Below are positions 438 through 60,005 of a stretch of 64,000 nt of DNA, piece after piece; position 1 is the stretch's first letter; each line of letters begins with the position of its first letter. The notes beneath the pieces are model-generated. The model did not search any database and was not told the origin of the DNA. It worked only from the letters and a program-made list of their open reading frames with translations. This stretch comes from Candidatus Cloacimonadota bacterium (lineage in GTDB: Bacteria > Cloacimonadota > Cloacimonadia > G963667145). A program made the translations under genes and the position numbers. Location: the NCBI GenBank assembly GCA_963676615.1, contig OY781092.1, positions 973,745-1,037,744 of the forward strand. Direction: 5' to 3'.

Positions 438-447
438 AGTAAATCCT

Positions 448-1242: not shown

Positions 1243-1469
1243 ATCATAAATTAAAAGTATTCATATTATATTAAGTCTTGCTTTCCTATTTAAAAATATT
1301 TTTGAAACGAAATGAATAAACACAGTAATTATCCCACATTTTATTTTAGGGAAAAAATCAAAATTATTCCCATTTGAAGCCTGCCAGCACCCATTCTTTA
1401 TTAAAAAAATACCGCCAATAAAAAAATTGGCTATCTAAAACACGGCAAAAACACCCAATTCGCAAATTT

Positions 1470-3823: not shown

Positions 3824-3844
3824 TCAATTTTCCACATTTTTTAA

Positions 3845-4318
3845 TTAGACGACGCCGGGATAAAAATTTTGCACAAGTTCCAGCAAAAACCGCAAAATCC
3901 GAGACGACGCCACCGCAGGATTTTGCAAGAGATTGTAATCGAAAAAAATATTGAAGCCAACAGAAAGCAGCGCCACAATTCCCAAAAATAAAAGCACAAT
4001 GAATAGAGCGCCCAAAATCTTATCGTAAATTCCTAAGTCCAAAAAATCCAATCCTTTACGAATATAGACGCTAAAAATTTTGAGCAAAATCACGACCGCC
4101 AAAAAAATCAAAACGAAAGCAATCAACTTGCCCACAAAAACAGAAAGCCCAAACTCGTTTGCAAAAATTCCAGCCAAAACATCGCCAAAAAATACGCCGA
4201 AAACGACTGTGCCGACCACCGCCAGCACCTTGGTCAAAAAGCTGACAAACCCTTTGATGAAGCCATATACAAACAAGCCAAAGCCCAAAATCAACAAGAC
4301 AATATCTAAAATATTCAT
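3845..4318 (-). CDS. cvpA: CvpA-family membrane protein (colicin V production protein-like)
   Basis: The protein starts MNILDIVLLILGFGLFVYGFIKGF and has several TM helices, a typical CvpA N-terminus. The start is chosen at the internal Met of the track ORF. Confidence 0.6.
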   Translation of the reverse strand: MNILDIVLLILGFGLFVYGFIKGFVSFLTKVLAVVGTVVFGVFFGDVLAGIFANEFGLSVFVGKLIAFVLIFLAVVILLKIFSVYIRKGLDFLDLGIYDKILGALFIVLLFLGIVALLSVGFNIFFDYNLLQNPAVASSRILRFLLELVQNFYPGVV

Positions 4319-4402
4319 ACCATAAACAAAAGGCAATGCCTACCTCGTCTCACATCGACCAGCATACGCACTGCCTTATTTTTTTTAGTTCAAATTTGAA
4401 AA

Positions 4403-4609
4403 CTAATAACCTCTCATACGAGTCAACTTGCGTTGCTTGTTAAAAAGCTTTCTCTTAACCGCATTCACTTCGCGGCGTTTTTTGACAGAAGGCTTCTCGT
4501 AGCGTTGATTTTTTTTGATATCAGACAACACTCCCGCAATCTCGCACTTCTTCTTAAACTTGCGAAGCAAAACCTCAAAAGGTTCTTTATTTTTGGAAAC
4601 AACCATCGG
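4403..4609 (-). CDS. rpsU: 30S ribosomal protein S21
   Basis: The sequence MPMVVSKNKEPFEVLLRKFKKKCEIAGVLSDIKKNQRYEKPSVKKRREVNAVKRK matches the S21 consensus. The start is chosen at the internal Met. Confidence 0.85.
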   Translation of the reverse strand, partial: PMVVSKNKEPFEVLLRKFKKKCEIAGVLSDIKKNQRYEKPSVKKRREVNAVKRKLFNKQRKLTRMRGY

Positions 4610-4838
4610 CATAAGTAACATCACCCCACTTTTTGCTGTATTTTTTTCCTTTAGCAAAACCAAAACAAACTCCCTGCGTTATCGGTCAAGGAAATTGTTT
4701 GCTATTGGGGAAATTTATTTTGACGACACCGCTGGAAAATCTGCTCGACCAAATTTGAAGCTAAAAACAAACGGCACAATTTATATATTTCTTGACACTC
4801 TCCACCCAATGACAAAAAAATGCTTCATAATTTGGAAA

Positions 4839-4915
<77 letters not shown>

Positions 4916-4940
4916 TTTTTTTAAAAAGCAAATAAAAAAA

Positions 4941-4972
4941 ACAGCCACTTTTTTACGAGTGACTGTTTTTTT
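4941..4972. terminator. Putative bidirectional intrinsic terminator between the tRNA gene and the permease gene
   Basis: An imperfect 8-bp hairpin (ACAGCCAC ... GTGACTGT) is flanked by an A-run on one side and a T-run on the other. It lies between convergent genes. Confidence 0.4.
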
Positions 4973-4986
4973 GTAACTAAAAATTA

Positions 4987-6357
4987 CTAAACATCAATTT
5001 CGTTCTCTTCTTTTTTATCAAGAGGCAAAATCATATTAGCGATGATAGCAGTAACACCACCTGTTGTAATAGGCGAGCTAAAGATGCTTTTGATAACAGT
5101 TGGGAAGTGATTCATCACCCCTGGCACCATTTGCACACCCAAGCCAAGTCCAAAAGAAAGCGCCAAAATCATCACGCCTCTTCTGTCCAAACCGTGCTTG
5201 GTGATAATCTTGATACCAGAAGACGCAACCGTTCCAAACATAATCAGAGTAGCTCCACCCAAAACTGGTTTAGGCATCACTTGGAAAACTCCACCGATAA
5301 CTGGGAACAATCCCAAAAGCACCAAAAGACCTGCAATGTAAAGCCCCACATAACGAGAAGCGATACCAGTCAATTGGATGATACCGTTATTTTGACTGAA
5401 AGTAGTGTTAGGGAAAGTGTTAAAAACTGAAGCCAAAGCTGAGTTGAAACCGTCACCCAATACACCGTCGCCGATTCTCTTGAGATACAAATCGCCTTCT
5501 ACAGGCTCGCCAGAAACCATACTTGTCGCAGTAAGGTCACCAGTTGACTCGATAATCGTGATGATATAAATCAAACCGATAGTAAGGAAAGCCGAAACAT
5601 CAAAATTGAAGCCGTATTTGAAAGGAATAGGAATGTTAAAAACTGGCAATTGAGCAATAGGACTAAAATCGATTCCCACGGTGAAAAGAGCTGTAAAATA
5701 TCCTACAGCCAAACCGATAACAATCGACGCCATTCTGAGCATTGGTTGTCTTGAGCGGTTAAAGATAATCACCGTAAATAAAGTCAAAAACGCCAAACCA
5801 AGGCTTTCCATAGATGCAAATTGATCTGGGAAGTGATCTTTGATATACTGTCCACCAGCCATATCGGTAATTCCTACTTGAATAAGACTAAGACCGATAA
5901 GAGTCACCACGATACCAGAAACCAGCGGCGTAATCACTGTCCGCAAACGGTGAATAAACCGACTACCGATCATCTCGATAAACGATCCGAAGAAACAAGC
6001 CGTAAAGATTGTAGCAAGAACGAGCTCTACGCCACCACCTTGACCTTTAATCGCAAAACCTGCGCCCAAAATCGGACCCAAGAAAGCGAAGCTAGTTCCC
6101 TGAATACTCAAAAGTCCAGAACCAATAGGTCCAAACTTTTTCACCTGAATGAATGTGGCAAGACCAGAGACGATAAGCGCCATTCCAATAAGATACGGAA
6201 CCTCGCTGCCCAGACCAAGCACACTGCCGATGATAATCGTTGGAGTAATAATAGCCACGAATACACCCAGCAGGTGCTGAAAAGCAGCCAAAAGAGCTGT
6301 AACCGGCGCAGGCCTATCATTCAATCCAAACACCAAATCGGTATTTTTGTTTTCCAT
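4987..6357 (-). CDS. Nucleobase:cation symporter-2 (NCS2) family permease (xanthine/uracil permease family)
   Basis: A 456-aa polytopic membrane protein with NCS2-like composition and Gly-rich helices. A strong RBS (AAGGAGG) lies upstream. Confidence 0.7.
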   Translation of the reverse strand: MENKNTDLVFGLNDRPAPVTALLAAFQHLLGVFVAIITPTIIIGSVLGLGSEVPYLIGMALIVSGLATFIQVKKFGPIGSGLLSIQGTSFAFLGPILGAGFAIKGQGGGVELVLATIFTACFFGSFIEMIGSRFIHRLRTVITPLVSGIVVTLIGLSLIQVGITDMAGGQYIKDHFPDQFASMESLGLAFLTLFTVIIFNRSRQPMLRMASIVIGLAVGYFTALFTVGIDFSPIAQLPVFNIPIPFKYGFNFDVSAFLTIGLIYIITIIESTGDLTATSMVSGEPVEGDLYLKRIGDGVLGDGFNSALASVFNTFPNTTFSQNNGIIQLTGIASRYVGLYIAGLLVLLGLFPVIGGVFQVMPKPVLGGATLIMFGTVASSGIKIITKHGLDRRGVMILALSFGLGLGVQMVPGVMNHFPTVIKSIFSSPITTGGVTAIIANMILPLDKKEENEIDV

Positions 6358-9661: not shown

Positions 9662-10582
9662 ATGCAAATCCAAACTCTTTGCCAAAACACCACTTGGCTC
9701 GCACCGCTTGCGGGATTCACCGATTTGCCCTATCGCCAAATCGCCAAAGAAAACGGCGTCGGCGTGCTAACCACCGAAATGGTCAGCGCCGCGGGACTCA
9801 CCTACAACCCCGCAGCCAGCTTGCCCTATGCGGACACAAAAAACGATAAATCTCCCATCGGAATCCAGCTCTTCGGCACTGAGCCAGACCATTTCCAAAA
9901 AGCCATTTCGATTTTGCCAAAAACAGATTTTTTGTGCATCAATATGGGATGCCCCGTGAAAAAAGTGGTCAAAACTGGCGCAGGCTCGGCTCTTATGGAC
10001 ACTCCCGAACTCGCAGCCGAAATCGTTCAGCGCTGCAAAAAACACCTGCCAAAAAACACTCCGCTGGTGGTCAAATTTCGCACGGGATTTTCCTCGGAAA
10101 ACTTTCTGAATTTCGGGCTGCAGATGCAAGAAGCTGGAGCCGACATCCTGATTTTGCACCCTCGCACCAAAGCGCAGATGTTCACAGGTCACAGCAATTG
10201 GTCGCAAATCAAGACGCTGAAAAAAAAATGCCAAGTGCCCGTAATCGGCAACGGCGATATTTTTTGCCAAGCTGACATCAAAAAAATGCAAGACGAAACC
10301 GCTTGCGACGGCGTGATGATTGGGCGAGGCGCTATCGGCAATCCTTGGATTTTTTCGGGAAAATCGTCCACAAAAAGCGAAAAACTGGCGACGATTAAAA
10401 GGCACTATCATCTCGCGATAGCTCATTATGGGCAAGAAAAAGGCGTCCGCACAATGCGAGCGCATATCGGCAAATACACCAAAAATCTGCAAGGCGGCAA
10501 CAAAGCCCGCCAAGCTATCAACGCTCTTATGAATTTGGAAGAGATTTTTTCGGTGCTGGACGAACTTTTTTTATCCTCTTAA
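9662..10582 (+). CDS. tRNA-dihydrouridine synthase
   Basis: It has the Dus-like TIM-barrel signature LAPLAGFTDLPYRQIA and later ICINMGCPVKKV (catalytic Cys). The start is chosen at the internal MQIQTL. The track ORF begins earlier. Confidence 0.8.
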   Translation: MQIQTLCQNTTWLAPLAGFTDLPYRQIAKENGVGVLTTEMVSAAGLTYNPAASLPYADTKNDKSPIGIQLFGTEPDHFQKAISILPKTDFLCINMGCPVKKVVKTGAGSALMDTPELAAEIVQRCKKHLPKNTPLVVKFRTGFSSENFLNFGLQMQEAGADILILHPRTKAQMFTGHSNWSQIKTLKKKCQVPVIGNGDIFCQADIKKMQDETACDGVMIGRGAIGNPWIFSGKSSTKSEKLATIKRHYHLAIAHYGQEKGVRTMRAHIGKYTKNLQGGNKARQAINALMNLEEIFSVLDELFLSS

Positions 10583-19730: not shown

Positions 19731-20153
19731 TTATTGATTAAGCGACTTCATCCCAAAGCAATAGACAACATGAGCGACATCAGATTTTCGATAAAATCGC
19801 TCCATGATTGGTATCCAAATTTTAAACAAAATCTTGGCTATCGCTTGTGAAAAGGGAATTTTCGCCTTGTTGGTTTGTTCTTTGGCAGGATCAGATTTCC
19901 AAGGCGGCGCATCCGCATATCCCGATTGCACAACGCTATACCCTTTTTTTGCGACCTCATCTTCCAACTCTTGCCTACTCATCCCTCTGCCAGAATGTTC
20001 CCGATTAGAATGCAAAAAAATCTTTCCTGTAGAGTACTTTTTTCGCAGTTTTTTACGCAAAACCTCAATCGAAACAATCTCAAAAATTTCGCCCAGACCA
20101 AAAATTTCACAACCATATTCCACATCCAAAGACAAACTAATCACCCTATCCAT
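19731..20153 (-). CDS. Hypothetical protein
   Basis: A 140-aa ORF with no family recognised. It lies in a local lower-GC patch. Confidence 0.3.
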   Translation of the reverse strand: MDRVISLSLDVEYGCEIFGLGEIFEIVSIEVLRKKLRKKYSTGKIFLHSNREHSGRGMSRQELEDEVAKKGYSVVQSGYADAPPWKSDPAKEQTNKAKIPFSQAIAKILFKIWIPIMERFYRKSDVAHVVYCFGMKSLNQ

Positions 20154-20186
20154 CTTTTGTAACCCTCAATATTTAACCCAAACAAT

Positions 20187-21158
20187 TCAGTCATCCAACT
20201 CTTTGATAACTGGCAAAATCCCAGGAATAGTAAAATATTTTTTCTCAATATTCAAGCTCTTCTTAAACTCACTACGGTAATACCAATCGCTACACAAAAA
20301 ATCTAGCTTTTTCTTAAACTCCTTCAGAGCAAAAAGTTGAAAAATAAATCTAGCGAAGGAGAAAACAAAATTTGGCAACTTATGCCACTTTCCATATCTC
20401 CCAGCACCTAAATTTTGACTAATAAAATCTGCCAAATCTGCCAAAATTACTGGCTCGTCATCAACAACAATATCTTCAAAACAATTAGAAAATTTTTCAT
20501 CTAAAATTTTCAAAAAAACTTCCACTAAAAGTTCAATGCTCGTTAAGTGAAACTTAACAGCTTTCCTCGGGAAAAACAGCTTTCTTTTGCGAACAAGGTT
20601 GATCAAAATGTTAGGAAACCCGTTTTTATCCTCTGTGCCATAAATGATACTAGGTCTGACGATATTGCAATTCAACCCTTTCTGCATCAAAATCTTCAAT
20701 CTTTTTTCTGCTTCAATCTTTGATTTATAATACAGGGAATCGCCTGACAAAACACTATTTTTACCCGCAGGAACTTTTGGAGGAATCGTGCCATAAACTC
20801 CCACAGAAGAGCAAAAAATAAACTTTGTTTTGTTTTGCAAAGCGCTTTTAGCCAAAATTTCGGTCGCCTCAACATTTGCCAAAAAATACTCTTTCTCAGA
20901 AAACTTCCGCTGCCTTAAAAGAGCTCCTATATGCAAAATTGCATAAAAATTTTCCGTTTCTAAATAGTTTTGCAAGCCGTCTAAATCGCACAAATCAATT
21001 TCAATAATTTTTATTTTCCCTGTAAATTCTTTTAATCTTTCAGGGGCAGTATTTGGTCGCACAATAGCTGTTACATTATATAAACCTGTCTTCAAAAGAG
21101 CCCGCGCAGTGTGTTTGCCGACAAATCCCGTAACGCCAGTGATTAGAACTTTCTTCAT
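20187..21158 (-). CDS. NAD-dependent epimerase/dehydratase (extended SDR family)
   Basis: The N-terminal Rossmann motif is ITGVTGFVGKH. It has the YxxxK region and lower-GC codon usage. Confidence 0.7.
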   Translation of the reverse strand: MKKVLITGVTGFVGKHTARALLKTGLYNVTAIVRPNTAPERLKEFTGKIKIIEIDLCDLDGLQNYLETENFYAILHIGALLRQRKFSEKEYFLANVEATEILAKSALQNKTKFIFCSSVGVYGTIPPKVPAGKNSVLSGDSLYYKSKIEAEKRLKILMQKGLNCNIVRPSIIYGTEDKNGFPNILINLVRKRKLFFPRKAVKFHLTSIELLVEVFLKILDEKFSNCFEDIVVDDEPVILADLADFISQNLGAGRYGKWHKLPNFVFSFARFIFQLFALKEFKKKLDFLCSDWYYRSEFKKSLNIEKKYFTIPGILPVIKELDD

Positions 21159-21161
21159 TTT

Positions 21162-21884
21162 TTATTTTGATTTTTTTTTAGAACAAATATACAAAAAACC
21201 TAAAGAAAAAAGTTTCGGAAAAATTTTGTGTATTCTTAAAAAAAGCAATATACTTTCAACAATCTGAAAAACAAATTTATCTTCTTTTCTCCTAAAAAAA
21301 CAATAATTTTTCTTCTCAATTTTAAAGCCCGCATCATCTAAAAGTTTTTCCAACTTCCCTTTGGAAAAAACCCTAATATGCTCAGAAAAAAGGTCTGTCC
21401 CATTTTTGTGCGAAATATCCATATAATCGACAAACTCACCCAAAACAAAGCGAATTCTATTAGCTATATTCAGCATATTCGGCACACAGACCACAAATTT
21501 CCCGTCGTCTTTCAAAGAAGCAAAAATAGAATTAACAGCCGCTTGAGGATCAAAAATATGCTCCAAAACATCCAAACAAAAAATAGCGTCAAACTCATTT
21601 TTTGAAAAAGGCAAAGCCTGTGTATTAAGGTTACAAACTTTGGCTTTAATTCCCAACTTGCTAGCTTTTTCAACAGCATTATTCGAAATATCTACACCGT
21701 ATGTTTGGTTATTTTCGATAAAAGGCGTTAACATAAAACCATCACCACAACCAATATCGAGAATTTTTTTATTACCCCCATCTTTCATAAAAGAGGAAAG
21801 CAAAATTTTTCTCACCCAATCGTGATAATAGCCACCGATATAAATCTTCTCTTTTTTCCAATACTCGTCATAATACTCTTTCAT
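21162..21884 (-). CDS. Class I SAM-dependent methyltransferase
   Basis: Motif I is ILDIGCGDGFM and the post-I acidic motif is FDAIFCLDVLEHI. It is adjacent to and co-oriented with the epimerase. Confidence 0.7.
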   Translation of the reverse strand: MKEYYDEYWKKEKIYIGGYYHDWVRKILLSSFMKDGGNKKILDIGCGDGFMLTPFIENNQTYGVDISNNAVEKASKLGIKAKVCNLNTQALPFSKNEFDAIFCLDVLEHIFDPQAAVNSIFASLKDDGKFVVCVPNMLNIANRIRFVLGEFVDYMDISHKNGTDLFSEHIRVFSKGKLEKLLDDAGFKIEKKNYCFFRRKEDKFVFQIVESILLFLRIHKIFPKLFSLGFLYICSKKKSK

Positions 21885-22027
21885 TTTATCTCCATTATTA
21901 GTCGTTCTAACTTTGAAATCGCAAATATACTGACAAGCAAATTTTCCACCTTTTTATTTTCGCTTGACATCATAGAGTCCGCTGCAAACTGTTATCAAAA
22001 TTATTTTTGTTAAAAAAGAGGGACAAA

Positions 22028-47255: not shown

Positions 47256-50200
47256 TTACACTCTCTCCACTTGCAAATAAATCTCAAGCCCGTTGATATC
47301 CCACTTTTGCATCCCCTGGCTAGAGTCCGCGCGCTCAAAACAGTCCGCCAAAGTCTCCTTTTTCAAATCCTCCAAATATCCAGCCAGCATCTGCGCCAAA
47401 TCCTCGCTGTAAAAATACCGCACCCGAATTCTATCCATCACCTGAAACCCAGAATTTTTCCGCGTAAACTGAATCTTGTTGATCAGCTCGCGGGCATACC
47501 CCTCGGCAATCAGCTCGTCCGACAGCTCCGTCTGCAGCGCCACAAAAAAATCGCCACCACTCTCCACCTGATAACCCACAAGGCTCTGAAGCTCCAGCGT
47601 CAAATCGTCCTTGTCCAGCCGATACTCTGCTTCCTCCAGCCGCACCGCAAAATCTTCGCCCTTGGCAAAAGCGCTCTGAATCGCCGCAACATCCGCCGAC
47701 TGCAAAAAATCTTGCAAAGCTTTCATCTGCTTGCCCACTTTCTTGCCCACATTCTTAAAATTCGGCTTAGCAAAATACGACACAAAATCTTCGTCCACAA
47801 AATCGACCTTTTTGATGTTAATCTCCTCCAAAATAAGCTCCTGCATCCCAGCAACCACGCTCTGCAACTTCTTGGGCAACTTAATTTGGGCAAGCGGCTG
47901 TCGCACCTTGAGCCCAGCATTATTCCGCGCAAATCGTCCCAGCGACACCACCTGAATGACCGTATCCATCTGCTTTTCCAGCTCCAAATCGATGGCAGCC
48001 AAATCACTCTTTGGAAAAGCCGCCAAATGCACCGACTCTTCGCCCGTGAGGCTACAATAAATATGATCCGCCAAAAACGGCGAAACTGGCGCAATCAGCT
48101 GCGTGAGCCGTGTCAAAACGGTCTGCAAAGTGTAATACGCATCCTTTTTATCATCGCTAAGCTCAAACGACCAAAACCGTTCCCGCGAGCGCCGAACATA
48201 CCAATTTGAAAGCTCCTCGCACGCAAAATTCTGAATCGCACGCACCGCCTTGGTCAAATCGTAGGCGTCCATCCGATCCTGCACATACGCAATCAAACCG
48301 TTGAGCTTGGAAAAAATCCAGCGGTCGATACTCGCGCTCACCTCCCGCGGCTTCTCGACTTTGTAACCGTCGATATTCGCATAAGTCGCAAAAAACGAAT
48401 AAACATTTTTGAGCGTGCCAAAAAATTTACCAGCCACCTCTTTCACGCCGCTAGCATCAAACTTCGTCGGCACCCACGGCGGACTGCCCGCCAAAAGATA
48501 CCACCGCACAGCGTCCGCTCCAAACTCGTCCATCACCTCAAACGGATTGACCGTGTTACCCTTGGACTTGCTCATCTTTTTGCCATTTTTATCCAAAATC
48601 AAATCGTTCACCAGCACATTTTTGTAAGGCGTTTGCCCTTTGATTATCGTCGAAATCGCCAGCAGAGAATAAAACCAGCCTCTTGTCTGGTCGATACCCT
48701 CACAAATAAAATCGGCAGGAAAAAGCTCGTCGAAATTTTCTTTGTTCTCAAACGGATAATGATGCTGGGCAAACGGCATCGCACCGCTGTCAAACCAGCA
48801 ATCTATCACCTGCGGCACTCGATGCATCACGCCGCCGCATTTTGGACACTCCAGCACAATATCGTCCACAAACGGCTTGTGCAACTCTGGATTTTCTGGC
48901 ACCGCAGAACCGTCGGAAGCCAGCCGTCCTTTCGCACGCAAATCAGCCTTTGAGCCGACACTTTCTTGAGCAGCACAATCATCGCAAACCCAAACATTCA
49001 GCGGAGTCCCCCAAAAACGATCCCGCGAAATCGCCCAATCCGTATTATTCTCCAGCCAAGAACCAAAACGCCCTTCGCCCACAAACGCAGGCGCCCAGTT
49101 GACCTTTTTATTCTCCGCAATCATTTTGTCTTTATAGTCGGTCGTCTTGATATACCAGCTCATCCGCGCGTAATACAAAAGCGGGCTATCGCAGCGCCAG
49201 CAGAAAGGATAGGAGTGTTTAAAACTCTCTTTCTTCAGAAACAAACCGCGCTCCTTGAGCGAAATCACGATCTGCTTCTCGACCTCCTTATCCTTGACAA
49301 AATATCCCTCCAACATCGGAAAATTCGCGTTATACTTGCCATCTTCGCCCACGGTATGCACCAGCGGAATGCCATTTTTTTTGCACACCTGATAATCGTC
49401 CTCACCATACATCCCCGCAGTATGCACAATCCCAGTTCCGTCCTCGGTCGTCACAAAATCGCCCGCGTAAATCTTATGCGAGTTCTCGTTCTGCAAACTC
49501 TCCACCGCAAAAAGCGGCTCGTACTCTTGCCCCAAAAGCGCATCGCCCTTGAACTCCTGCACGATTTTATACTCATCGTCCAGCACCTTCAGCAAATTTT
49601 TCGCCAAAATATAAAACTCGCCCTGGCACTCAACCTTCACATAATCGATCTGCGCTCCAACCACCAAAGCCACATTCCCCGCAAGCGTCCACGGCGTCGT
49701 CGTCCACGCCAAAAAATAGGTGTTCGCCTGATCTTTTTTGCGAAATTTGATAAAAACCGACGACTCGCTAACATCTTTATAACCAAGAGCCACCTCGTGC
49801 GAAGACAGCGGCGTCCCGCATTTCGGGCAAAACGGCACGACCTTGTGTCCCTGATACAAAAGCCCCTTTTCCCACATCTGCTGCAGTAGCCACCAAACCG
49901 ACTCTATATAATCGTTGTCCAGCGTGATATACGGATTGTCCAAATCGATTTCGTAGCCCATCTGCTGCGTCATCTTCCGCCACAACTTCTCGTAGCTAAA
50001 AACCGACTCGCGGCACTTTTGGTTAAACTCCTGCACGCCATAATCCAAAATCTTCTTCCGATCGTCCAACCCCAGCTGCTTCTGCACCTCAATCTCCACA
50101 GGCAAACCGTGCGTATCCCAGCCGGCCTTTCGCTTCACACGAAAACCCTGCATCGTCTTATATCGACACACCGTATCCTTGATCGAGCGCGCCATCACAT

Positions 50201-50366
50201 GATGAATTCCGGGCTTGCCGTTGGCAGTAGGAGGTCCCTCAAAAAAGATAAAATCTTCGCTTCCCTTGGCACTGCTCTTGCCCAAAATATCTATCTGCTC
50301 CCATTTTTTCGCCACTTCCGCCTCAATCCTAGCGCTCTTTTTTTTGGGATCAATCGGTTCATACAT
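47256..50366 (-). CDS. ileS: Isoleucine--tRNA ligase
   Basis: A 1036-aa protein with HIGH (PTANGKPGIHH) and KMSKS (KMSKSKGN) motifs, an editing domain and Zn-finger Cys residues. Confidence 0.9.
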   Translation of the reverse strand: MYEPIDPKKKSARIEAEVAKKWEQIDILGKSSAKGSEDFIFFEGPPTANGKPGIHHVMARSIKDTVCRYKTMQGFRVKRKAGWDTHGLPVEIEVQKQLGLDDRKKILDYGVQEFNQKCRESVFSYEKLWRKMTQQMGYEIDLDNPYITLDNDYIESVWWLLQQMWEKGLLYQGHKVVPFCPKCGTPLSSHEVALGYKDVSESSVFIKFRKKDQANTYFLAWTTTPWTLAGNVALVVGAQIDYVKVECQGEFYILAKNLLKVLDDEYKIVQEFKGDALLGQEYEPLFAVESLQNENSHKIYAGDFVTTEDGTGIVHTAGMYGEDDYQVCKKNGIPLVHTVGEDGKYNANFPMLEGYFVKDKEVEKQIVISLKERGLFLKKESFKHSYPFCWRCDSPLLYYARMSWYIKTTDYKDKMIAENKKVNWAPAFVGEGRFGSWLENNTDWAISRDRFWGTPLNVWVCDDCAAQESVGSKADLRAKGRLASDGSAVPENPELHKPFVDDIVLECPKCGGVMHRVPQVIDCWFDSGAMPFAQHHYPFENKENFDELFPADFICEGIDQTRGWFYSLLAISTIIKGQTPYKNVLVNDLILDKNGKKMSKSKGNTVNPFEVMDEFGADAVRWYLLAGSPPWVPTKFDASGVKEVAGKFFGTLKNVYSFFATYANIDGYKVEKPREVSASIDRWIFSKLNGLIAYVQDRMDAYDLTKAVRAIQNFACEELSNWYVRRSRERFWSFELSDDKKDAYYTLQTVLTRLTQLIAPVSPFLADHIYCSLTGEESVHLAAFPKSDLAAIDLELEKQMDTVIQVVSLGRFARNNAGLKVRQPLAQIKLPKKLQSVVAGMQELILEEINIKKVDFVDEDFVSYFAKPNFKNVGKKVGKQMKALQDFLQSADVAAIQSAFAKGEDFAVRLEEAEYRLDKDDLTLELQSLVGYQVESGGDFFVALQTELSDELIAEGYARELINKIQFTRKNSGFQVMDRIRVRYFYSEDLAQMLAGYLEDLKKETLADCFERADSSQGMQKWDINGLEIYLQVERV

Positions 50367-51272
50367 TGCAATCCTCCTGCTTTTCCAAACAAAATTTCTT
50401 CACATTAAAACTTTCGTCTCTTCATTTCTGTCAAGAGTTGTTTTGGCGCTACAAGAGAATTTCTCCCAAAAGCGTTACTTTTATTCAGCATTTTTTTATT
50501 GGTCTTGACACAAATAGAGAAATTTATCGAATTGGGAAAAGGTTAGAAAAGGGAATAAATGGACAAAATGTTGGATATAACACCAAATTGGAAGGCTAAA
50601 CGATATGTGGAGTTTGGTTAGTTGTGATAAAACATTTAAGGAGACTGACATAACTATGAATGGATTCCAAAGACCTGCACCAAAAACGAGAGATTCAATA
50701 AAAAATTTTTGCAAATCAATAGATTGTGAAGTTGGGGCACAAACAATTAATAGCATAATAGAATAATCAGACCTAATTTAGTGATTTTTGTGTCAAAATT
50801 TTCTTGGGACAAATTAAGGTGCAAAATTCCAAAATCAGAATTAAAGGTGAAATATGACTTTGTTTGTCATCCAGGAACAGGCGGTCTTTATTGGCATAAT
50901 AAGAATTATAATCACGGTGTGAAAAAATTTAAATCATTATATAGAAGAGAAAATAATAAAGCCCTCAAATAACATTTTGTATAAGTAATGGCAAGCAATG
51001 TGGTAAATATTAAGGCTTGTAGCCCGATCAAACTACGTAGCGGTTTAATAGGTTTGCTCTCCGAAATGCCAAACATTTCATATACTCACCGTTAGGCATA
51101 AGCTAAAAAAAACAGCGAATATAAAATATAAACTAAGAATTATTAAAAAAATCAATGCACAAACACACATTTAGTTTTGCCGACCAGAAAACCAAACCCT
51201 GAAAAACCCAAAGAGCTATTTTTTAGCCAGCGCACGAAAAATAATTATAAATTTGTAATTAAAGAGTTTAAA

Positions 51273-53465
51273 ATGAGTATAGAACAAGGAATTAATTCCA
51301 TACGAGAAAGTAATAAAAAGGTTGAAACTCAACAATGGTTTCAAAAACTTATTCAGACAGATGAATATGTTGGTGATTTGTATTCCATAAACTATGAAAC
51401 TGCGCGAGTAATAATTCATGACTTCTACAGAGAAAAAGTAGGAGGAATTCCAAGTTTGAGTTTCTTAATTGCTTCAAGAGTTGACCCAAATAATTCAGAA
51501 ATTGACTTTAAAACAGAGGATGCATCATTTATTCTTTTAAGAGTAATGGATGCAGCTGCACTTCCACAAGACAGAGAAGCTGAAAGAATTAGAGTTGAAA
51601 CAGCACAAAGAATAAGTGGTGAAACTGAAAAAAATTGGGATGAAGCAGGTTCAATGGATTTAAGAACAAAAAATCTGTTAAGTTTTGCTGGTGTGCAATG
51701 CAGAATAATCGGAACATTTTATCTCGAAGAAAATGGACAAAATGGAGAAGCACCACTTAATTTAAAATTCGGTAGTGACATTTCAAATTATTATCCAAAC
51801 AGAGGATTAAAAGTTTATAAACCAAATGGAAAGGCTCTTGAGTTAATTGTAAATTATTCTGACCCTTCAAATATTCAAGCACACATTGAAAAATATGGAA
51901 ATACAGAAAATGTAAAATTGGGTTTTGTAAGATATGCTTCAACAAATAGGAAATATCAGCAAATTGATGATGTCCCTGTTTATATTTATCCAGCAGACCT
52001 TCTATCTCAAAAATCTGCCTTGTTTGGAATGACAAGAACAGGGAAATCCAATACTACTAAAATAATTGCGAAATCTGTTTTTGAATTACGAAATGCACAA
52101 CAGTCTGGAGAAAAGCCATTAAGAATTGGGCAAATAATTTTTGACCCTAACGGTGAATATGCAAATGAAAACACACAGGATAAGGATGGCAGTGGAAATC
52201 CAAATGCACTCAAAAATATTTGGAAAAAAAACGAAACTTTAAAAAATGTAGCTGATAACTTAAAACAACAATATATCCAAGAGAAAGACATTGAAGATAA
52301 AAAAAGACTATGGAATGAAATTAAGACGTTGATTGATTCTGAAGTGGTTACTTTTGGTATTTTACCTCATCCAAATGATCCTGGCAGGAAGAGAATGCTA
52401 CTAAATTTCTATCTTGATGATAATTTACCTATTGGTAAAGAAATTATAAATTCTCTTTTGTCTGACGATACCACAATATATATAAAGAATTTTTTGCAGG
52501 TAAATTTGGAAAAACCTGACGAAAATGATAAGAGTGCAATGACAAGATATAAGAGAAGAGTTTTAGCATATCGTTCAGTTCTTGCACGAGCAGGTTTTCC
52601 TGTACCAGAAAAATTTAATGTTTCAGTAAAAAGTTTGTTTAATAAGGATTTATTGAATGCGATGGAAAATAGTAAAAGTGATAATTCGGTAGAATATAAA
52701 TCTGGGGCAAAAGTTTTTAAAGAAGAGAATCCTACTTTGCAACAATTAGCTGGTGCATTTGAATCACTTGATAAATTTATTCGCGAAAATAAAGAATACA
52801 AAATTTTTGAAACTGATTATGTTCAAAATTCAAAATCAGGTAATGCTTGGGCGGATGAGGATTTGAAAAAAATTATTGGGATTTTCCAATATCCAAATGG
52901 TACACGAAAAATTGGTAAAGCAGTAGAGCAACATAGTGCTGATACAACATGTGACTATGCAGATGATATTTATAATGATTTAAAAAACGGGAAACTTGTA
53001 ATTATTGATCAGTCAAGTGGAGATTCAGAGTTAAATGAGTCTTCAGCAAAAAGAGTGATGAAAAAAATATTTGATGAAAATAAAAATCTTTTTACATTGG
53101 GGAAAATTCCCCCCGATATAATGGTATATGTTGAAGAGGCACATAATATTTTACCATCTGATAAAGAAAAAGACTTAAAAGACATTTGGGTAAGAACAGC
53201 AAAAGAAGGAGCTAAATTGCATATAGGACTTGTTTACGCTACCCAAGAAGTAAGTAGTATTCAAAGAAATATTTTAAAAAATACAGCGAATTGGTTTATA
53301 AGCCATTTAAACAATACAGATGAAACCAAAGAACTCTGCAAGTACTATGACTTTGCAGACTTTGAACCGTCAATAAGGCGAGCACAGGATAAGGGCTTTT
53401 TAAGAGTTAAAACATTAAGCAATCTGTTTGTAATTCCTGTTCAAGTTGACAAATTTGAGGTTTAA
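51273..53465 (+). CDS. HerA/DUF87-family P-loop ATPase (FtsK-HerA superfamily)
   Basis: Walker A is FGMTRTGKSNTTK, followed by DPNGEY. Walker B is IMVYVEEAHNIL and the sensor motif is YATQEV. The N-terminal roughly 250 aa look like a HAS-barrel. The gene is very AT-rich. The start is chosen at MSIEQG (ATG 51273). Confidence 0.65.
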   Translation: MSIEQGINSIRESNKKVETQQWFQKLIQTDEYVGDLYSINYETARVIIHDFYREKVGGIPSLSFLIASRVDPNNSEIDFKTEDASFILLRVMDAAALPQDREAERIRVETAQRISGETEKNWDEAGSMDLRTKNLLSFAGVQCRIIGTFYLEENGQNGEAPLNLKFGSDISNYYPNRGLKVYKPNGKALELIVNYSDPSNIQAHIEKYGNTENVKLGFVRYASTNRKYQQIDDVPVYIYPADLLSQKSALFGMTRTGKSNTTKIIAKSVFELRNAQQSGEKPLRIGQIIFDPNGEYANENTQDKDGSGNPNALKNIWKKNETLKNVADNLKQQYIQEKDIEDKKRLWNEIKTLIDSEVVTFGILPHPNDPGRKRMLLNFYLDDNLPIGKEIINSLLSDDTTIYIKNFLQVNLEKPDENDKSAMTRYKRRVLAYRSVLARAGFPVPEKFNVSVKSLFNKDLLNAMENSKSDNSVEYKSGAKVFKEENPTLQQLAGAFESLDKFIRENKEYKIFETDYVQNSKSGNAWADEDLKKIIGIFQYPNGTRKIGKAVEQHSADTTCDYADDIYNDLKNGKLVIIDQSSGDSELNESSAKRVMKKIFDENKNLFTLGKIPPDIMVYVEEAHNILPSDKEKDLKDIWVRTAKEGAKLHIGLVYATQEVSSIQRNILKNTANWFISHLNNTDETKELCKYYDFADFEPSIRRAQDKGFLRVKTLSNLFVIPVQVDKFEV

Positions 53466-53476
53466 ACAGTATTTAT

Positions 53477-54865
53477 ATGGGATTTGAAGGAGAATTTGCC
53501 AGTTATGAGCCATTAAGGCGAATGCTTGATAGTGATAAAGTTAAATCACTCCAAGACAGACTGAAAATACGAAAACAAGAAGAAGAAACAGATACTTTTA
53601 CTGGCTCAATTGTTAAAAAGTCAGACTTGACTGAAAGTTCAATTCAACCAGATTTAGTTTTAGCTATTGATGGAAGTAATTTAGTGGCTAAAGCTGAAAA
53701 TGGTTTCCCAGGTGCAGAATTTGGTTATATTACAATAGCTTCTGTTTTAATAGATTTAAAGTTAATAGACAATTTAGAAAAGAAAAAGTTTATTGATCCA
53801 AAAAAAGTTAGAGAAACTGAAAAGGCATCAACAATAGAAAGTGTTTTTCCTGGGTGCAATGTAATATTAGATAACGAAAAAAATGCAAAAGCTTCAATTC
53901 GAAGAGCATTATTTGAAGAATTAAAAAGCAATACAATATTTGCGAATGGCGGAGAAACCTTATTGGGTACATACGAATATTTGTTCAGAATAAAGAGGGA
54001 ATATTTCTCCGAAATCCGCCTTCCAAGAAGCCCTATTGATGGTATTGATGATGAAATGACTTATGGATATGGTGAATATAATTGCCCTCATTCAGGAGAA
54101 AAACTATACTCAACTGATGCTTTGCGCTTACACGAATTAATGAATCCTGGTGGAACTAATGGAGAAATGTTTGGGCAAATAATGTCAACTCTTGAAAAAC
54201 TTTGGTTAGTTCACATACTTAGAGCCTTTGAACAAAAAAAATGGTTGTCAACACTTCGGAGAGTAGCATTTATTATGGATGGGCCATTAGCTGTATTTAG
54301 TACTTCATCATGGTTAACTAAAGTAATTAATTATGAATTAAATAGACTAAATGATTTGCAGAAAGCAGTTAACGGTCAGGATTTATTAATTATCGGTATT
54401 GAAAAATCAGGGACATTCGTAAATCATTTCGAGGAAATTGATACGACTAAAGATGGAGTTAGAGATAAATTCCCTAAACAATCAGCATTACTTCTTGATG
54501 ATGGATATATAAAAAGAAATATTATTTTTTCTGAAAGCATAAAACCATATGGTCAGGACACCTATTTTGGAAGGAAAATATTTTATAAAACTGCCTCTGG
54601 ACAAAAAATAGTTGCTGCAACTGCATTTTTGAGAAGCTTTTCTTCAGATAAAGAATTTTCCGAATATTTAGATTCTAGTAATCCTGTTAATTTTTCAAGA
54701 CTTCCAGATGTTATGAATTTACTTGATAAATTGGTTTCAAGTAGATACCCAAATTCCGTTTCACCTTTAGTATCAGCTCATGCAGAAGCAGCAATTCCTT
54801 TAAATTTAGGTAAACGTATATTTGAGGATATTGCAAGAGAAATAAGAGAAAATTCAAAACTATGA
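53477..54865 (+). CDS. NurA-like nuclease (RNase-H-like fold)
   Basis: It has LVLAIDGSNL near the N-terminus (catalytic-Asp motif) and later FIMDGPLAV. At 462 aa it lies immediately downstream of the HerA-like gene. Confidence 0.5.
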   Translation: MGFEGEFASYEPLRRMLDSDKVKSLQDRLKIRKQEEETDTFTGSIVKKSDLTESSIQPDLVLAIDGSNLVAKAENGFPGAEFGYITIASVLIDLKLIDNLEKKKFIDPKKVRETEKASTIESVFPGCNVILDNEKNAKASIRRALFEELKSNTIFANGGETLLGTYEYLFRIKREYFSEIRLPRSPIDGIDDEMTYGYGEYNCPHSGEKLYSTDALRLHELMNPGGTNGEMFGQIMSTLEKLWLVHILRAFEQKKWLSTLRRVAFIMDGPLAVFSTSSWLTKVINYELNRLNDLQKAVNGQDLLIIGIEKSGTFVNHFEEIDTTKDGVRDKFPKQSALLLDDGYIKRNIIFSESIKPYGQDTYFGRKIFYKTASGQKIVAATAFLRSFSSDKEFSEYLDSSNPVNFSRLPDVMNLLDKLVSSRYPNSVSPLVSAHAEAAIPLNLGKRIFEDIAREIRENSKL

Positions 54866-55989
54866 TAGTTTTAAATGATGTTTTAAAAGGGCGTAGTACT
54901 GCAGAAGCACGATGGGCAAGATTTGGTCCATATTATGCGATGTTTCCTGTAGATTTTGCTTTTGAAGTTGTTCAAAAATATTCAAAAGAGGGTGATTATA
55001 TAATAGATCCTTTTGCTGGAAGATGCAGTAGTATATATGCTGGGGGTGTTCTTGGTCGAGTTAGTTTAGGAATTGAAATTAATCCAGTTGGATGGCTTTT
55101 TGGAAAAGTAAAACTTCGACCTGCAAAAAAAGATCTTGTAATTGCAAGGTTGCTTGAGATTTATAAAAAAAGAGATTGTTATAGTTTAGCAATTGAAAAA
55201 ATGCTTGAATTTTATCGTATTTGTTATTGTGATGAGGTTTTAAAATTTTTATTAGCAGCAAGAGAAAATCTTGATTGGGAAAATAACAGTATTGATGCTT
55301 CCCTTATGTCTATTCTTTTGGTTTACTTACATGGTAAATTAGGAGAAGGCTTGTCAAATCAAATGAGAATGACAAAATCAATGGGAATGAACTATTCTGT
55401 TAAGTGGTGGAAGAAGAATGGTTTTATAAATCCGCCTGAAATTAATCCTTATGAATTTATTCTTAAGAAGATTGAATGGAGGTATGAAAAAGGTACACCA
55501 AGTATTACTGAAAGTGATGTTGTTTTTGGAGATAGCACTATTGAATTAAAAAAAATTGTCCAAAGAGCAGAGAGAAATAATATAAAATTTTCTTTACTTT
55601 TTACATCTCCGCCTTATTATTCAATTACGAATTATCATGCTGATCAATGGCTTAGAATATGGCTTTTAGGTGGGGCAGAAAATCCTCATTCATTTAATGC
55701 CAAATATAAAGGACGCTTTGGAAATAAACAAGAATATTATAATTTGCTTGATAGTGTATTTGGATATTCTTCTAAATTAATGGGGAAAGATAGTGCAATT
55801 TATGTTCGCACAGATAAAAGAGAATTTACTTTTAATTCAACTTTAGAAATATTAAAAAAACATTTTCCACATCATAAAATACAACTTATTGAAAAACCAC
55901 TGGATAATAATACTAAAACACAAACTAAATTATATGGAGATAAATCAATAAAGCCAGGGGAAGTAGATATAATATTGACAATAAAGTAA
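54862..55989 (+). CDS. DNA methyltransferase (N6-adenine / N4-cytosine type, SPPY motif)
   Basis: It has the SAM motif IIDPFAGRCSS and later the catalytic LLFTSPPYYSITNY. Its start overlaps the stop of the NurA-like gene (ATGA). Confidence 0.65.
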   Translation: MIVLNDVLKGRSTAEARWARFGPYYAMFPVDFAFEVVQKYSKEGDYIIDPFAGRCSSIYAGGVLGRVSLGIEINPVGWLFGKVKLRPAKKDLVIARLLEIYKKRDCYSLAIEKMLEFYRICYCDEVLKFLLAARENLDWENNSIDASLMSILLVYLHGKLGEGLSNQMRMTKSMGMNYSVKWWKKNGFINPPEINPYEFILKKIEWRYEKGTPSITESDVVFGDSTIELKKIVQRAERNNIKFSLLFTSPPYYSITNYHADQWLRIWLLGGAENPHSFNAKYKGRFGNKQEYYNLLDSVFGYSSKLMGKDSAIYVRTDKREFTFNSTLEILKKHFPHHKIQLIEKPLDNNTKTQTKLYGDKSIKPGEVDIILTIK

Positions 55990-56271
55990 AGTCAATGCTA
56001 AAGCCAATCACATTTGCAATTCACACAGACCACCTCTTGACCCAAAATTGCAAAAGAATATTTCTCACCAATGCACCGTAGAAAGTGAAAATAGTAGCAA
56101 ATTTGAAAGATAAAATGATTGCTCTAAAAGAAATTAGAAAAGGTTCAAGACAACATTACAAGTGTTAGACACAAGCTAGCTGTCTTGACCCAAAAAACCT
56201 TCTCTTCAATAAAAAAAGAGCCTCCAAAAAAATGAAGACTCTTTAAGTTTTTTAAGATTTTAAAATCAGCT

Positions 56272-57528
56272 CTATTTAATAAATTCAAGAAACGGCGAAA
56301 GAAACAGCAAAATACCAGTAAGAATTACAATAAACGGAACAACTCCACGATATTTCTTAAACCTATCCAACTTATACACAAGCAAAGTTGGGATAAAACA
56401 TCCAATTACAGCAAAAAATGGGCTGCATATACTCGTAAAATAAAGTATAGGGAAATTCGATAAAGCTGGAAGCCAAGCAATAATCACAATAAATATGATA
56501 ATGTAAATTGAGACTTTGCGCATATTGATCATATTTCTAGGGACTTTTCTGAAAAAAGTGTTAATAGTTATACCAGTACAAGCTTCATAAAATCCAAGCA
56601 TAACACCAAAAAAAGAAGTAACAACAGCACACAAATCAAGAGCAACACCCATTGATGGAATCGTTATTCCTGGTATTACTTCTGCCATAAGAGCAAGAAA
56701 TGAGGTATTGTCCTTAAAAGCCAATGCAGCTTCTGAATGGTCTATCGCCAATGTACACGAAAGAGCAAAAAAGAAAACAATGATAGCAAGAATAACAAAC
56801 GCAGTGTTCATTATCTTTAAAGACTTCAACCTAGCCATTTCTCTATCTTCATTCCGATTCTTAACCGAAAGAACCATTGGACTCAAAGACTGAAGAAAAA
56901 GTATGGAAGTCATCGCAAAAGGAAGAGTTATGATTACATTTTTCACTATTTCCCAAAACGACGGAAGCGCCATAATGTTCTTAATGTCCCAATATGGAAT
57001 TATCAAAAAACTCAGCACAATAAGAATTGCTAAAATGATAATGACAAGCACTTTAGAAATGTTTAACAACAATTTTCGACTTTTAAAAGCAAAAAATACA
57101 AGTAGTGAAATCAGCGCCAGAGAATACAAAGGATTATGATTAAGAAATCCCTTGGTCCAGCCAGCAGTATGAATATACGATGCGCTATCGTTTGTGATGG
57201 TCTCACTATAAATGAAAACCCATAGCAAAAGCATTATAAAGTAAATTATTCCCAACACAACACCCCATTTTTTCCCAAGATACTCCCCGATGATTGTTGG
57301 ATAATCGTCGGAAGAATCTGCCTCAGCCACGGTATTGACAAAAAGGCGTTGAAAAAGATACAAACCAGGATACGCAACCAATACTGTAATTAAAAATGTC
57401 CACAATCCGACCAAACCTGCCTGAATAGGCAAAAACACGATACCTGCCCCCACTCCCATTCCAATAGTTACCGCAACATAACCCCAATCCCAAGAGTCTA
57501 GCTTAACGATTTTTTTTTCATTTTTCAT
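56272..57528 (-). CDS. Amino-acid permease of the HAAAP type (aromatic amino acid/serine transporter-like)
   Basis: A 418-aa protein with about 11 TM helices and an N-terminal WDWGYVAVTIGMGVGAGIVFLP motif. The gene is AT-rich. Confidence 0.5.
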   Translation of the reverse strand: MKNEKKIVKLDSWDWGYVAVTIGMGVGAGIVFLPIQAGLVGLWTFLITVLVAYPGLYLFQRLFVNTVAEADSSDDYPTIIGEYLGKKWGVVLGIIYFIMLLLWVFIYSETITNDSASYIHTAGWTKGFLNHNPLYSLALISLLVFFAFKSRKLLLNISKVLVIIILAILIVLSFLIIPYWDIKNIMALPSFWEIVKNVIITLPFAMTSILFLQSLSPMVLSVKNRNEDREMARLKSLKIMNTAFVILAIIVFFFALSCTLAIDHSEAALAFKDNTSFLALMAEVIPGITIPSMGVALDLCAVVTSFFGVMLGFYEACTGITINTFFRKVPRNMINMRKVSIYIIIFIVIIAWLPALSNFPILYFTSICSPFFAVIGCFIPTLLVYKLDRFKKYRGVVPFIVILTGILLFLSPFLEFIK

Positions 57529-58687: not shown

Positions 58688-59362
58688 ATGAACATCCTGA
58701 CAATCGACTCGCACTCCACTTCGGGCAGCGTCGCTATCGCCCAGAACGGACAAATCCGCTACCTCGCCTATCAGGACATCAAAGGCACACACAGTGCGCG
58801 CCTAATGAAAATGATCGACCAAGCGCTGCAAGTCTGCGAGCTACAAGTCGAAAACATCGACCAAATCGTCCTCTGCATCGGTCCTGGCTCGTTCACTGGC
58901 ATCCGCATCGGACTTGCCACCGCAAAAGGGCTTGCTTTCGCTCACAAAATCCCCATCGTGCCAGTCTCCTCGCTAGAGTTGCGAGCGCTGCCTTTGCAAA
59001 AATGCGGGGAAAAAATAATCAGCTTTTGTGACGCCAAAACCAAAGAGATTTACGCCGCCATCTACGACGAAAATTTCAAGCAAATTTTGCCCGCTGGCTG
59101 CTACAACGCAGAAAACTTTTTCAAAAACCTTAGCGGAAAATACATCGTCACTGGCGACAACTACCAAATAATCGAAAAACACTCGGCGCATTTGCAACTA
59201 GAAAAAGCCAGCCTTGCGCAAAGCCTGCCGCTCGCCGCTTTCCTCATCGAAAAAAATGACCCGCAGCAAAAATTCGACTTCGATCAGTTGGCAGACCTCG
59301 AGCCGCTATACCTGCGCAAATCGCAAGCAGAAATCGTCTGGGAAAAAAGAAAAGGGAAATAA
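58688..59362 (+). CDS. tsaB: tRNA threonylcarbamoyladenosine biosynthesis protein TsaB (YeaZ)
   Basis: It begins MNILTIDSHSTSGSVAI ... GPGSFTGIRIG. It is the inactive Kae1 paralogue. Confidence 0.75.
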   Translation: MNILTIDSHSTSGSVAIAQNGQIRYLAYQDIKGTHSARLMKMIDQALQVCELQVENIDQIVLCIGPGSFTGIRIGLATAKGLAFAHKIPIVPVSSLELRALPLQKCGEKIISFCDAKTKEIYAAIYDENFKQILPAGCYNAENFFKNLSGKYIVTGDNYQIIEKHSAHLQLEKASLAQSLPLAAFLIEKNDPQQKFDFDQLADLEPLYLRKSQAEIVWEKRKGK

Positions 59363-59390
59363 AAATCCCCATTTTGCAAAAATCATTCCA

Positions 59391-60005
59391 TTAAATATGA
59401 AATTTCTTGATTAAACCATCAAGGGCTTTATTCTGTTTTGTTGTCAATTCCCCTTTTTCAACATAATTTCTTTCCAAAGAAAGAACAAATTTACAATCAA
59501 ACCATTCATTGAATTTTACCCAATTTAAAATTTTATTAATTCTATACGGAACCGAAATATCCTCTCCACAAATAAAAATTAATACTTTTCTATTAATTTT
59601 CACCCTAAATTCAAGCTGTTTTTCAGTTAATTTTCTCTTTTTCAAAGTGTCAGAATAAAAGTTACATTCATACTTTGATAAAAACTTTTTTTCTTTAAGA
59701 TATTCTAGTATACTACTGCCAATACTTTTGTTTATATCTACTTTCACCCTTTCTGTTGCAGCCAAAATTTTAGTTCCAATATCAATATGCAAAAATTTAC
59801 TTACACAACAATTTCCCACCTCAGTTTGTTTATTATTTTTTACATTTTTTAACACACAAATATTTTTTATTGGATAATGTCCACAAAGACACTTTTTAGG
59901 GCTTCCACTCTTGTAAACAAAATCAAATTCCCACTCACTTTTAGCATTGTCCCAAATATTTGCTTCACTAATCTTTAAAATCTCTTCAAATAACTTATAT
60001 TCCAT
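59391..60005 (-). CDS. Hypothetical protein, AT-rich orphan with a CxCGH...GNCC motif
   Basis: A 204-aa ORF with about 30 % GC, unlike its neighbours. No family is recognised. Confidence 0.35.
   Translation of the reverse strand: MEYKLFEEILKISEANIWDNAKSEWEFDFVYKSGSPKKCLCGHYPIKNICVLKNVKNNKQTEVGNCCVSKFLHIDIGTKILAATERVKVDINKSIGSSILEYLKEKKFLSKYECNFYSDTLKKRKLTEKQLEFRVKINRKVLIFICGEDISVPYRINKILNWVKFNEWFDCKFVLSLERNYVEKGELTTKQNKALDGLIKKFHI

Follow-up and report, generated by a model that had tools for sequence, protein, structure and literature searches.

What role does a NurA-like gene play when it lies between a HerA-type ATPase gene and a DNA methyltransferase (MTase) gene in a low-GC island? The question is raised by a stretch of 64,000 nucleotides from a Candidatus Cloacimonadota bacterium (GenBank assembly GCA_963676615.1, contig OY781092.1, positions 973,745 to 1,037,744), which is called the window here. 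A preliminary description of this DNA, made from the letters alone, had proposed a NurA-like nuclease as the effector of the island.

Family assignment of the nurA product

The product of the gene matches the NurA family (Pfam ID PF09376) with an E value of 2e-29 and 103.3 bits, compared to a gathering score of 21. The match lies above the curated threshold and covers profile positions 2 to 254 of 254 over NurA residues 60 to 440, which is the whole domain. The preliminary description had made its reading depend on similarity to NurA or another RNase-H-like nuclease in sensitive profile searches, and the Pfam search shows this similarity. It had also pointed to two Asp-bearing motifs; LVLAIDGSN indeed occupies residues 60 to 68, whereas FIMDGPL was placed near residue 285 and is found at residues 265 to 271. 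The spacing between D65 and D268 is 203 residues.

The search for NurA relatives among 1.84 billion cluster representatives (50% identity clusters) resulted in 632 relatives at an E value of at most 1e-3 and 127 at an E value of at most 1e-30. The family alignment contains 47 full-length members with 23 to 72% identity to the window protein, and D65 and D268 are invariant in all 47 of them. Other invariant columns of this alignment are R142, D214 (YSTD), and K310 (IEKSG), next to those of D65 (AIDGS) and D268 (DGPL), and the residues E6, E240, and H435 (AH..AA) are near-invariant. The insert at residues 176 to 211, ahead of the invariant YSTD, forms a Cys4 zinc ribbon in most of the family and holds only one Cys in the window clade.

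The PDB search with the window NurA sequence alone detected no solved structure and thus no PDB NurA. The profile of the 47 members reaches one structure, TdpB, with a weak E value of 0.18, and in this weak profile match TdpB has DG, DG, and AH where the window protein has its D65, D268, and H435 motifs. The N-terminal consensus of the NurA family, MPYxGE, agrees with the TdpB N-terminus MPYAGEG. The AlphaFold2 model predicted from the 47-member alignment has a mean pLDDT of 92.7 and a pTM of 0.91, and it folds into an RNase-H-like structure with NurA topology. The best Foldseek match for the model is again TdpB, with an E value of 1.4e-7.

By sequence and structure model, the product is a NurA-family nuclease whose conserved acidic and histidine positions are intact and which is predicted to be active. 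The NurA-like reading of the preliminary description is therefore supported by the Pfam match, by the invariance of D65 and D268, and by the structural match to TdpB. At the level of the gene, the annotation is correct but ordinary, as public pipelines already name close homologues NurA; these carry the NCBI product name "DNA double-strand break repair nuclease NurA." The PHROGs search showed no family for the window NurA, and PADLOC 2.0 has no model matching it.

Operon and low-GC island

The nurA gene lies in the middle of a 4.7-kb herA-nurA-mtase operon (Table 1). The ATPase reading frame is followed by an 11-bp spacer (positions 53466 to 53476), and the nurA stop overlaps the MTase start by 4 bp (ATGA, positions 54862 to 54865), both as the preliminary description had stated. 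Since the promoter/terminator scan found no terminator-like site at either gene junction of the cassette, the trio looks like a single operon. The overlap of nurA and mtase, or a near-abutment, is seen again in orthologues, and the HerA-family ATPase partner next to NurA is kept in all related loci.

Table 1. Features of the cassette and its surroundings (positions in the window)
Feature	Positions	Strand	Description
ileS, island neighbour	47256-50366	-	Pfam assignment
Low-GC island with the cassette	50500-56270		~31% GC, ~5.7 kb; flanks ~46% GC (composition profile)
Upstream non-coding leader	51153-51272	+	partly conserved with the upstream flank of the related cassette L008
herA	51273-53465	+	HerA/FtsK-type ATPase, 730 aa from ATG 51273
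nurA (feature under study)	53477-54865	+	NurA-family RNase-H-fold nuclease (predicted), ATG start, 462 aa
mtase	54862-55989	+	SAM-dependent DNA amino-methyltransferase, 375 aa, start overlaps nurA stop (ATGA)
Conserved 3' non-coding stretch	55990-56075	+	directly after the mtase stop; TTGCAA palindromes at 56014 and 56048
Permease gene, island neighbour	56272-57528	-	Pfam assignment

Besides these three genes, no other gene is found in the island. At its borders, neither an integrase nor a tRNA nor long terminal repeats were detected, and the Rfam search of the island found no RNA element. It is bordered by ileS and a permease gene, and neither mre11 nor rad50 lies near the cassette.

Non-coding sequence on both sides of the operon is shared with related cassettes. 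Upstream, blastn of the flanks aligns positions 51153 to 51223 with positions 216 to 288 of L008 at 78%. The leader is presumably the site of the herA promoter and ribosome binding site, a putative assignment; the promoter scan of the cassette region gave hits no more frequent than in shuffled sequence and did not locate the promoter. Downstream, the stretch after the MTase gene aligns with the downstream flanks of the related loci L002, L008, and L011 (blastn and alignment), and so accompanies the cassette in some relatives. TTGCAA was considered as a possible target site; its frequency in the window equals chance expectation, being neither depleted nor enriched.

The HerA ATPase

The window HerA matches the Pfam DUF87/HerA central domain (E value of 7e-11) and the PADLOC HerA models (best E value of 2.7e-16). 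The Walker A motif GMTRTGKS (residues 252 to 259, with K258) and the Walker B motif IMVYVEEAH (residues 616 to 624) are both intact, and the orthologues align from residue 1 of the tabulated 730-residue version. Two inserts at about residues 301 to 360 and 451 to 510 are hypervariable, with 28 to 51% identity among orthologues compared to 71% overall.

The top PDB sequence match for the window HerA is TdpA (PDB ID 8wet_A) with an E value of 2.1e-14, whereas the canonical HerA (PDB ID 4d2i) is matched at 1.7e-6. TdpA also outranks the Sir2- and DUF4297-associated HerAs in this search. The NCBIfam equivalogs for repair HerA score 36 to 42 bits on the window protein against cut-offs of 800 to 970, and the "HerA_antiphage" equivalog, whose cut-off is 800, reaches 31 bits.

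The DNA methyltransferase

The third protein matches the Pfam N6_N4_Mtase profile (E value of 2.8e-9) and the PADLOC MTase_II model (E value of 6.5e-17). It carries both the SAM-binding motif I, GDYIIDPFAG (DPFAG at residues 49 to 53, from D49 to G53), and the catalytic motif IV, TSPPY (residues 248 to 252, with SPPY at 249 to 252), as expected of a DNA amino-methyltransferase. The motif order is permuted relative to beta-class enzymes, with motif I first and motif IV about 200 residues later, and neither motif varies among 11 orthologues, one of them from an archaeal plasmid. All PDB matches to the profile of these 11 orthologues are genuine DNA N6A/N4C methyltransferases, namely, TTHA0409 (E value of 1.8e-14), N4CMT, CcrM, DpnA, MboIIA, PvuII, and RsrI. 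The SPPY form of motif IV is more typical of N4-cytosine methyltransferases. The predicted mark is thus m4C or m6A, where the SPPY motif favours m4C without proving it.

Relatives and genomic contexts

The scan for relatives, with one genome per species, yielded 16 loci with a NurA relative at 56 to 90% identity, hosted by Cloacimonadota, several Bacteroidota families, Ignavibacteria, Campylobacterota, and Treponema. Every one of these loci whose contig extends far enough has HerA, NurA, and an MTase of the same family in the same order, and the NurA and MTase motifs are kept across the related loci. The flanks differ in every locus, and similarity to the window is limited to about 70 to 110 nt of non-coding sequence adjoining the cassette. 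Unrelated housekeeping genes encode most of the 84 flanking proteins of the related loci, and the flanks of some loci contain a few defence genes (Avs2, PDC-S05, PDC-S23, and PDC-S56). The trio of Acinetobacter towneri is located just downstream of glmS, the Tn7 attachment hotspot, together with a TnsE remnant and an integrase, and the Flectobacillus trio lies alone between housekeeping genes.

Beyond these loci, the identity of the MTase changes. A distant relative at 36% NurA identity has the architecture HerA-NurA-PF01555 MTase, and relatives at 26 to 30% identity have a Dam-type MTase (Pfam ID PF02086) instead, located upstream or downstream. One copy with the upstream Dam-type MTase sits in a prophage-like region, and one locus with the downstream version adjoins a 1678-aa protein with a weak DUF87 match. 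A temperate Vibrio phage encodes HerA, NurA, and an opposite-strand Type II MTase directly after its integrase, and the gene order on a haloarchaeal plasmid is DUF87-NurA-MTase. The order on a Deferribacter megaplasmid is MTase-HerA-NurA, where HerA is split by an IS200/IS605 element and the MTase is intact, a decay pattern typical of restriction-modification (R-M) systems. In one further locus, HerA-NurA is convergent with a SacI-like REase/MTase pair.

An adjacent MTase is found in 9 of the 11 informative independent lineages of the wider NurA family. The link to an MTase persists while its family, position, and strand change, suggesting that methylation is functionally tied to HerA-NurA, and this persistence through MTase replacement is the strongest argument for such a tie. 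The low GC content, the differing flanks, and the copies in phage, Tn7, and plasmid contexts show that the herA-nurA-mtase cassette is horizontally mobile.

These distributions bear on the possibility that the pair is a housekeeping HerA-NurA machine for the end resection of double-strand breaks, lying beside an unrelated orphan methyltransferase. Canonical archaeal and Deinococcus HerA-NurA do resect DNA ends (PMC12977600), and the NCBI product name of the close homologues agrees with such a role. However, a repair machine fits poorly with a low-GC island, with a patchy distribution across phyla at up to 90% identity and differing insertion sites, and with an MTase linkage that outlasts the replacement of the MTase family. 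It is also at odds with the lack of mre11 and rad50 nearby, with the low scores of the repair HerA equivalogs, and with TdpAB being closer than the repair enzymes, and we regard a housekeeping repair function as highly improbable.

The mobile contexts could also suit a module that processes or pumps the DNA of a mobile element for export or transfer, rather than for immunity, as has been proposed for the tdtA operon of ICEth1. This operon of Thermus thermophilus HB27 encodes Tth111II, a 377-aa NurA-like protein, the HerA-like hexamer TdtA, and a 410-aa PF01555-family protein (PMC5365140). Experiments showed that DNA donation in transjugation depends on this operon, and without its NurA-like gene transfer drops by orders of magnitude (PMC5365140), which together with the phage, ICE, Tn7, and plasmid locations of the cassettes speaks for such a role. 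Yet the trios of the window and of Flectobacillus stand alone among housekeeping genes without an integrase or transfer genes, and an MTase that is strictly co-inherited and at the same time swappable is a signature of self-marking and not of DNA export. The solved relatives TdpAB are, moreover, described as a restriction module (PMC12914056). A role in DNA transfer therefore appears very unlikely for the window cassette.

Proposed function and mechanism

We propose that nurA probably encodes the nuclease subunit of a three-gene mobile R-M-like defence cassette formed with herA and mtase. The defence genes beside some of the loci and the decay seen in the Deferribacter copy also speak for this reading. 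The methyltransferase would mark the host DNA at a short motif, and a hexameric HerA ring would pump double-stranded DNA, driven by ATP, into a NurA dimer. NurA would then cut this DNA with an RNase-H-type acidic site made up of D65, D268, and probably H435 plus D214 or E240. Self DNA carrying the mark would escape, and phage or plasmid DNA that enters unmethylated would be degraded. We infer that a complex forms, that it has nuclease and ATPase activity, that it confers defence, and that it reads methylation. The parallel is drawn by analogy to TdpAB, in which phosphorothioate (PT) marks on self DNA reportedly inhibit both the ATP-driven translocation and the nuclease activity.

The sensing of methylation is the weak point of the R-M reading. 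A ring translocase contacts the phosphates of the DNA, and the methyl group of a base lies in the major groove. TdpAB can sense the backbone sulfur via its phosphate contacts, whereas it is unexplained how a phosphate-gripping ring would read a methylated base. The NurA insert before YSTD and the two hypervariable HerA inserts are candidate methyl readers. Further observations count against the R-M reading. Most flanks are housekeeping genes and not classic defence islands, PADLOC has no catalogued system matching the herA-nurA-mtase trio, and the cyanobacterial plasmids (XRE-HerA-NurA) and the locus L036 are exceptions without an evident MTase.

The sensing problem disappears if the cassette follows the logic of Type I and Type III systems, in which the MTase would itself belong to the complex, find the unmethylated site, and recruit or license HerA-NurA, so that HerA-NurA themselves would not sense methylation. 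The translational ATGA coupling of nurA and mtase in the window and in most of the close orthologues would fit such a stoichiometric complex. A conserved protein-protein interface is, however, hard to square with MTases that belong to different families (Pfam IDs PF01555 and PF02086) and whose genes may precede or follow the pair or lie on the opposite strand. The variability profile of the orthologues shows no hypervariability in the putative TRD region of the MTase, which also counts against this model, and we consider a recruiting MTase subunit rather unlikely.

Returning to the proposed R-M-like cassette, a broader claim can be put forward tentatively, with somewhat more doubt than conviction. 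The herA-nurA-mtase cassettes, which occur in bacteria, on archaeal plasmids, and in temperate phages and whose NurA partner alone counts 632 cluster representatives, might represent an undescribed and widespread class of ATP-dependent R-M systems, in which a HerA ring and NurA would replace the SF2 helicase and the PD-(D/E)xK nuclease and would discriminate m6A- or m4C-marked self DNA, suggesting that the Tdp-type engine might be a general, modification-agnostic chassis. The literature search found no description of a HerA-NurA-methyltransferase trio; this search covered subscription journals thinly, and an earlier description is possible.

If this is confirmed, the R-M repertoire would gain a compact and abundant three-gene family. 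The cassette would further indicate that HerA-NurA engines have repeatedly been joined to different DNA marks, namely, phosphorothioate, Dam-type m6A, and SPPY-type methylation, and it would pose the sharp mechanistic question of how a ring motor that grips the backbone senses a methyl group in the major groove. It would also bear on the current debate over archaeal HerA-NurA, which is seen either as a repair machine or as an antiviral DNA shredder (PMC12977600).

Comparison with known systems

The HerA-NurA pairs of Sulfolobus, Pyrococcus, Thermococcus, and Deinococcus act in canonical end resection; the window cassette differs in being mobile and linked to an MTase, and in lacking mre11 and rad50. 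The assignment to a repair HerA-NurA operon was rejected on this missing linkage and on the equivalog scores of HerA.

The anti-phage systems SIR2-HerA and DUF4297-HerA (Gao "Her") likewise combine a HerA-family ATPase with an effector in one cassette. The effector in the window is NurA, and a methyltransferase is present, whereas no Sir2 or DUF4297 effector is found and the HerA_antiphage score is far below its cut-off, so that these systems were rejected. The eight-gene MADS system (mad1 to mad8) was rejected as well, as only the mad8 model matches HerA (E value of 6e-14) and no other mad model matches the island proteins.

The ICEth1 tdtA operon, compared here by description, resembles the window cassette in joining a NurA-like gene (TTC1878), a HerA-like hexamer of a size for double-stranded DNA, and a PF01555 gene (TTC1880) in one operon of a mobile element (PMC5365140). 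It differs in its gene order, which is nurA-herA-mtase compared to herA-nurA-mtase in the window, in its additional Type IIG enzyme, and in its role in DNA donation.

The Type I and Type III R-M systems share with the window cassette the self-marking by an amino-methyltransferase, an ATP-driven DNA motor, and a nuclease, and also the appearance as mobile, compact, selfish-looking cassettes. The motor in the window is a HerA/FtsK-type ring and not an SF2 helicase, and the nuclease is an RNase-H-fold NurA and not a PD-(D/E)xK enzyme. An assignment to Type I or Type III was rejected, as the cassette contains no SF2 helicase, PD-(D/E)xK nuclease, or S subunit.

The closest known system is TdpABC, presented in PMC12914056 (with reference to An et al., Nat Chem Biol 2025) as a third R-M system, based on phosphorothioate and found in extremophilic bacteria, whose modification is made by the single gene tdpC. 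Its solved structures include 8wet, 8wfd, and 8y1k. TdpA is the best PDB sequence match for the window HerA, and TdpB is the best structural match for NurA. The sequence identity between TdpB and the window NurA is only about 14 to 17%, and TdpB has 375 residues compared to 462 in the window protein, which is about 90 residues longer and carries an extra insert; TdpA has 586 residues compared to 730 in the window HerA. The hosts differ too, with TdpABC found in extreme thermophiles and the window-type cassettes in mesophile-type lineages. The protein database search with a 111-aa TdpA fragment for the tdp operon and TdpC gave no matches. TdpABC in the strict sense was rejected because the third gene of the window is an MTase with DPFAG and SPPY motifs and the island holds no other gene, with TdpC being set apart by description. 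The modification gene is thus a SAM-dependent DNA amino-methyltransferase and not the PT-synthesis gene tdpC, and taken as a system, the cassette looks like the methylation-based equivalent of TdpABC, which was itself characterised only in 2025.

Sequence bordering the cassette

The methyltransferase stop codon is immediately followed by about 85 nt of non-coding sequence, which is kept across several loci that are otherwise unrelated (see the table for the window copy and its counterparts). The window copy holds two TTGCAA palindromes with a spacing of about 34 nt, and the count of this hexamer across the whole window equals the chance expectation. This stretch may serve in regulation or recombination and move together with the HerA-NurA-methyltransferase cassette.

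A 23-nt segment upstream of the cassette (window 50970-50992) has a 96% match of borderline significance downstream of the cassette at L008 (5061-5083), one of the related loci, which might hint at a common insertion-site or end sequence.

Features of the cassette, its borders and the low-GC patches
Feature	Sequence	Position	Remark
Conserved non-coding stretch, about 85 nt	window	55990-56075	immediately 3′ of methyltransferase stop
Counterpart of the stretch	L002	10496-10582	
Counterpart of the stretch	L008	4924-5036	
Counterpart of the stretch	L011	about 10511-10560	
HerA hypervariable segment	window	52173-52352	HerA residues about 301-360
HerA hypervariable segment	window	52623-52802	HerA residues about 451-510
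NurA N-terminus	window	53477-53500	conserved from Met1 in the family
NurA insert	window	54002-54109	NurA residues about 176-211, just before the invariant YSTD motif
Low-GC patch	window	1-2000	about 33% GC (window about 45%)
Low-GC patch	window	20000-22000	about 33% GC (window about 45%)
Low-GC patch	window	59000-60000	about 33% GC (window about 45%)

The second low-GC patch carries genes for an NAD-dependent sugar epimerase and a class-I SAM methyltransferase, and the minus-strand ORFs at 448-1242 and 59391-60005 have no Pfam match. The genes of these patches are probably further horizontal acquisitions.

Variation among related loci

At four related loci, the restriction half shows signs of decay or rearrangement while the methyltransferase is intact. 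On the Deferribacter plasmid pDF308 (L031), HerA is interrupted by IS200/IS605 tnpA/tnpB; in the Vibrio phage PQ189353 (L028), its annotation is divided between two ORFs; at L013, it has a frameshift close to its C-terminus; and at L010, a gap of 870 bp separates HerA from NurA.

The Tolypothrix, Nostoc, and Calothrix plasmid loci (L029, L032, and L033) and locus L036 belong to the wider family and carry an XRE-type HTH gene, HerA, and NurA, with no annotated methyltransferase. These variants either follow another self/non-self logic or have their methyltransferase located elsewhere.

Some cassettes adjoin other defence genes. On the JGI contig of the NurA relative P0225, HerA-NurA-Dam is adjoined by a 1,678-residue protein with a weak DUF87 match, and the cassette at L016 is adjoined by a 1,437-residue protein (947-5257), which we take to be the sole Avs2 match among the flank proteins.

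Variable and conserved regions of HerA and NurA

The N- and C-terminal parts of HerA are 80 to 98% identical among orthologues, and identity in both hypervariable segments is 28 to 51%, compared with 71% overall. These segments are possible target-recognition or anti-defence-exposed surfaces.

In most members of this NurA subfamily, the insert ahead of the YSTD motif resembles a Cys4 zinc ribbon (CPxxC...CxC); the window NurA and its close relatives retain the insert, but with only one Cys, and it is the least confident part of the structure model (pLDDT 63 to 81). The N-terminal family consensus is MPYxGE (MGFEGE in the window protein), matching MPYAGEG at the start of TdpB, the nuclease of the TdpABC phosphorothioate system. 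The conservation from Met1, together with this match to TdpB, suggests that the extreme NurA N-terminus is a functional peptide, for example, one contacting HerA.
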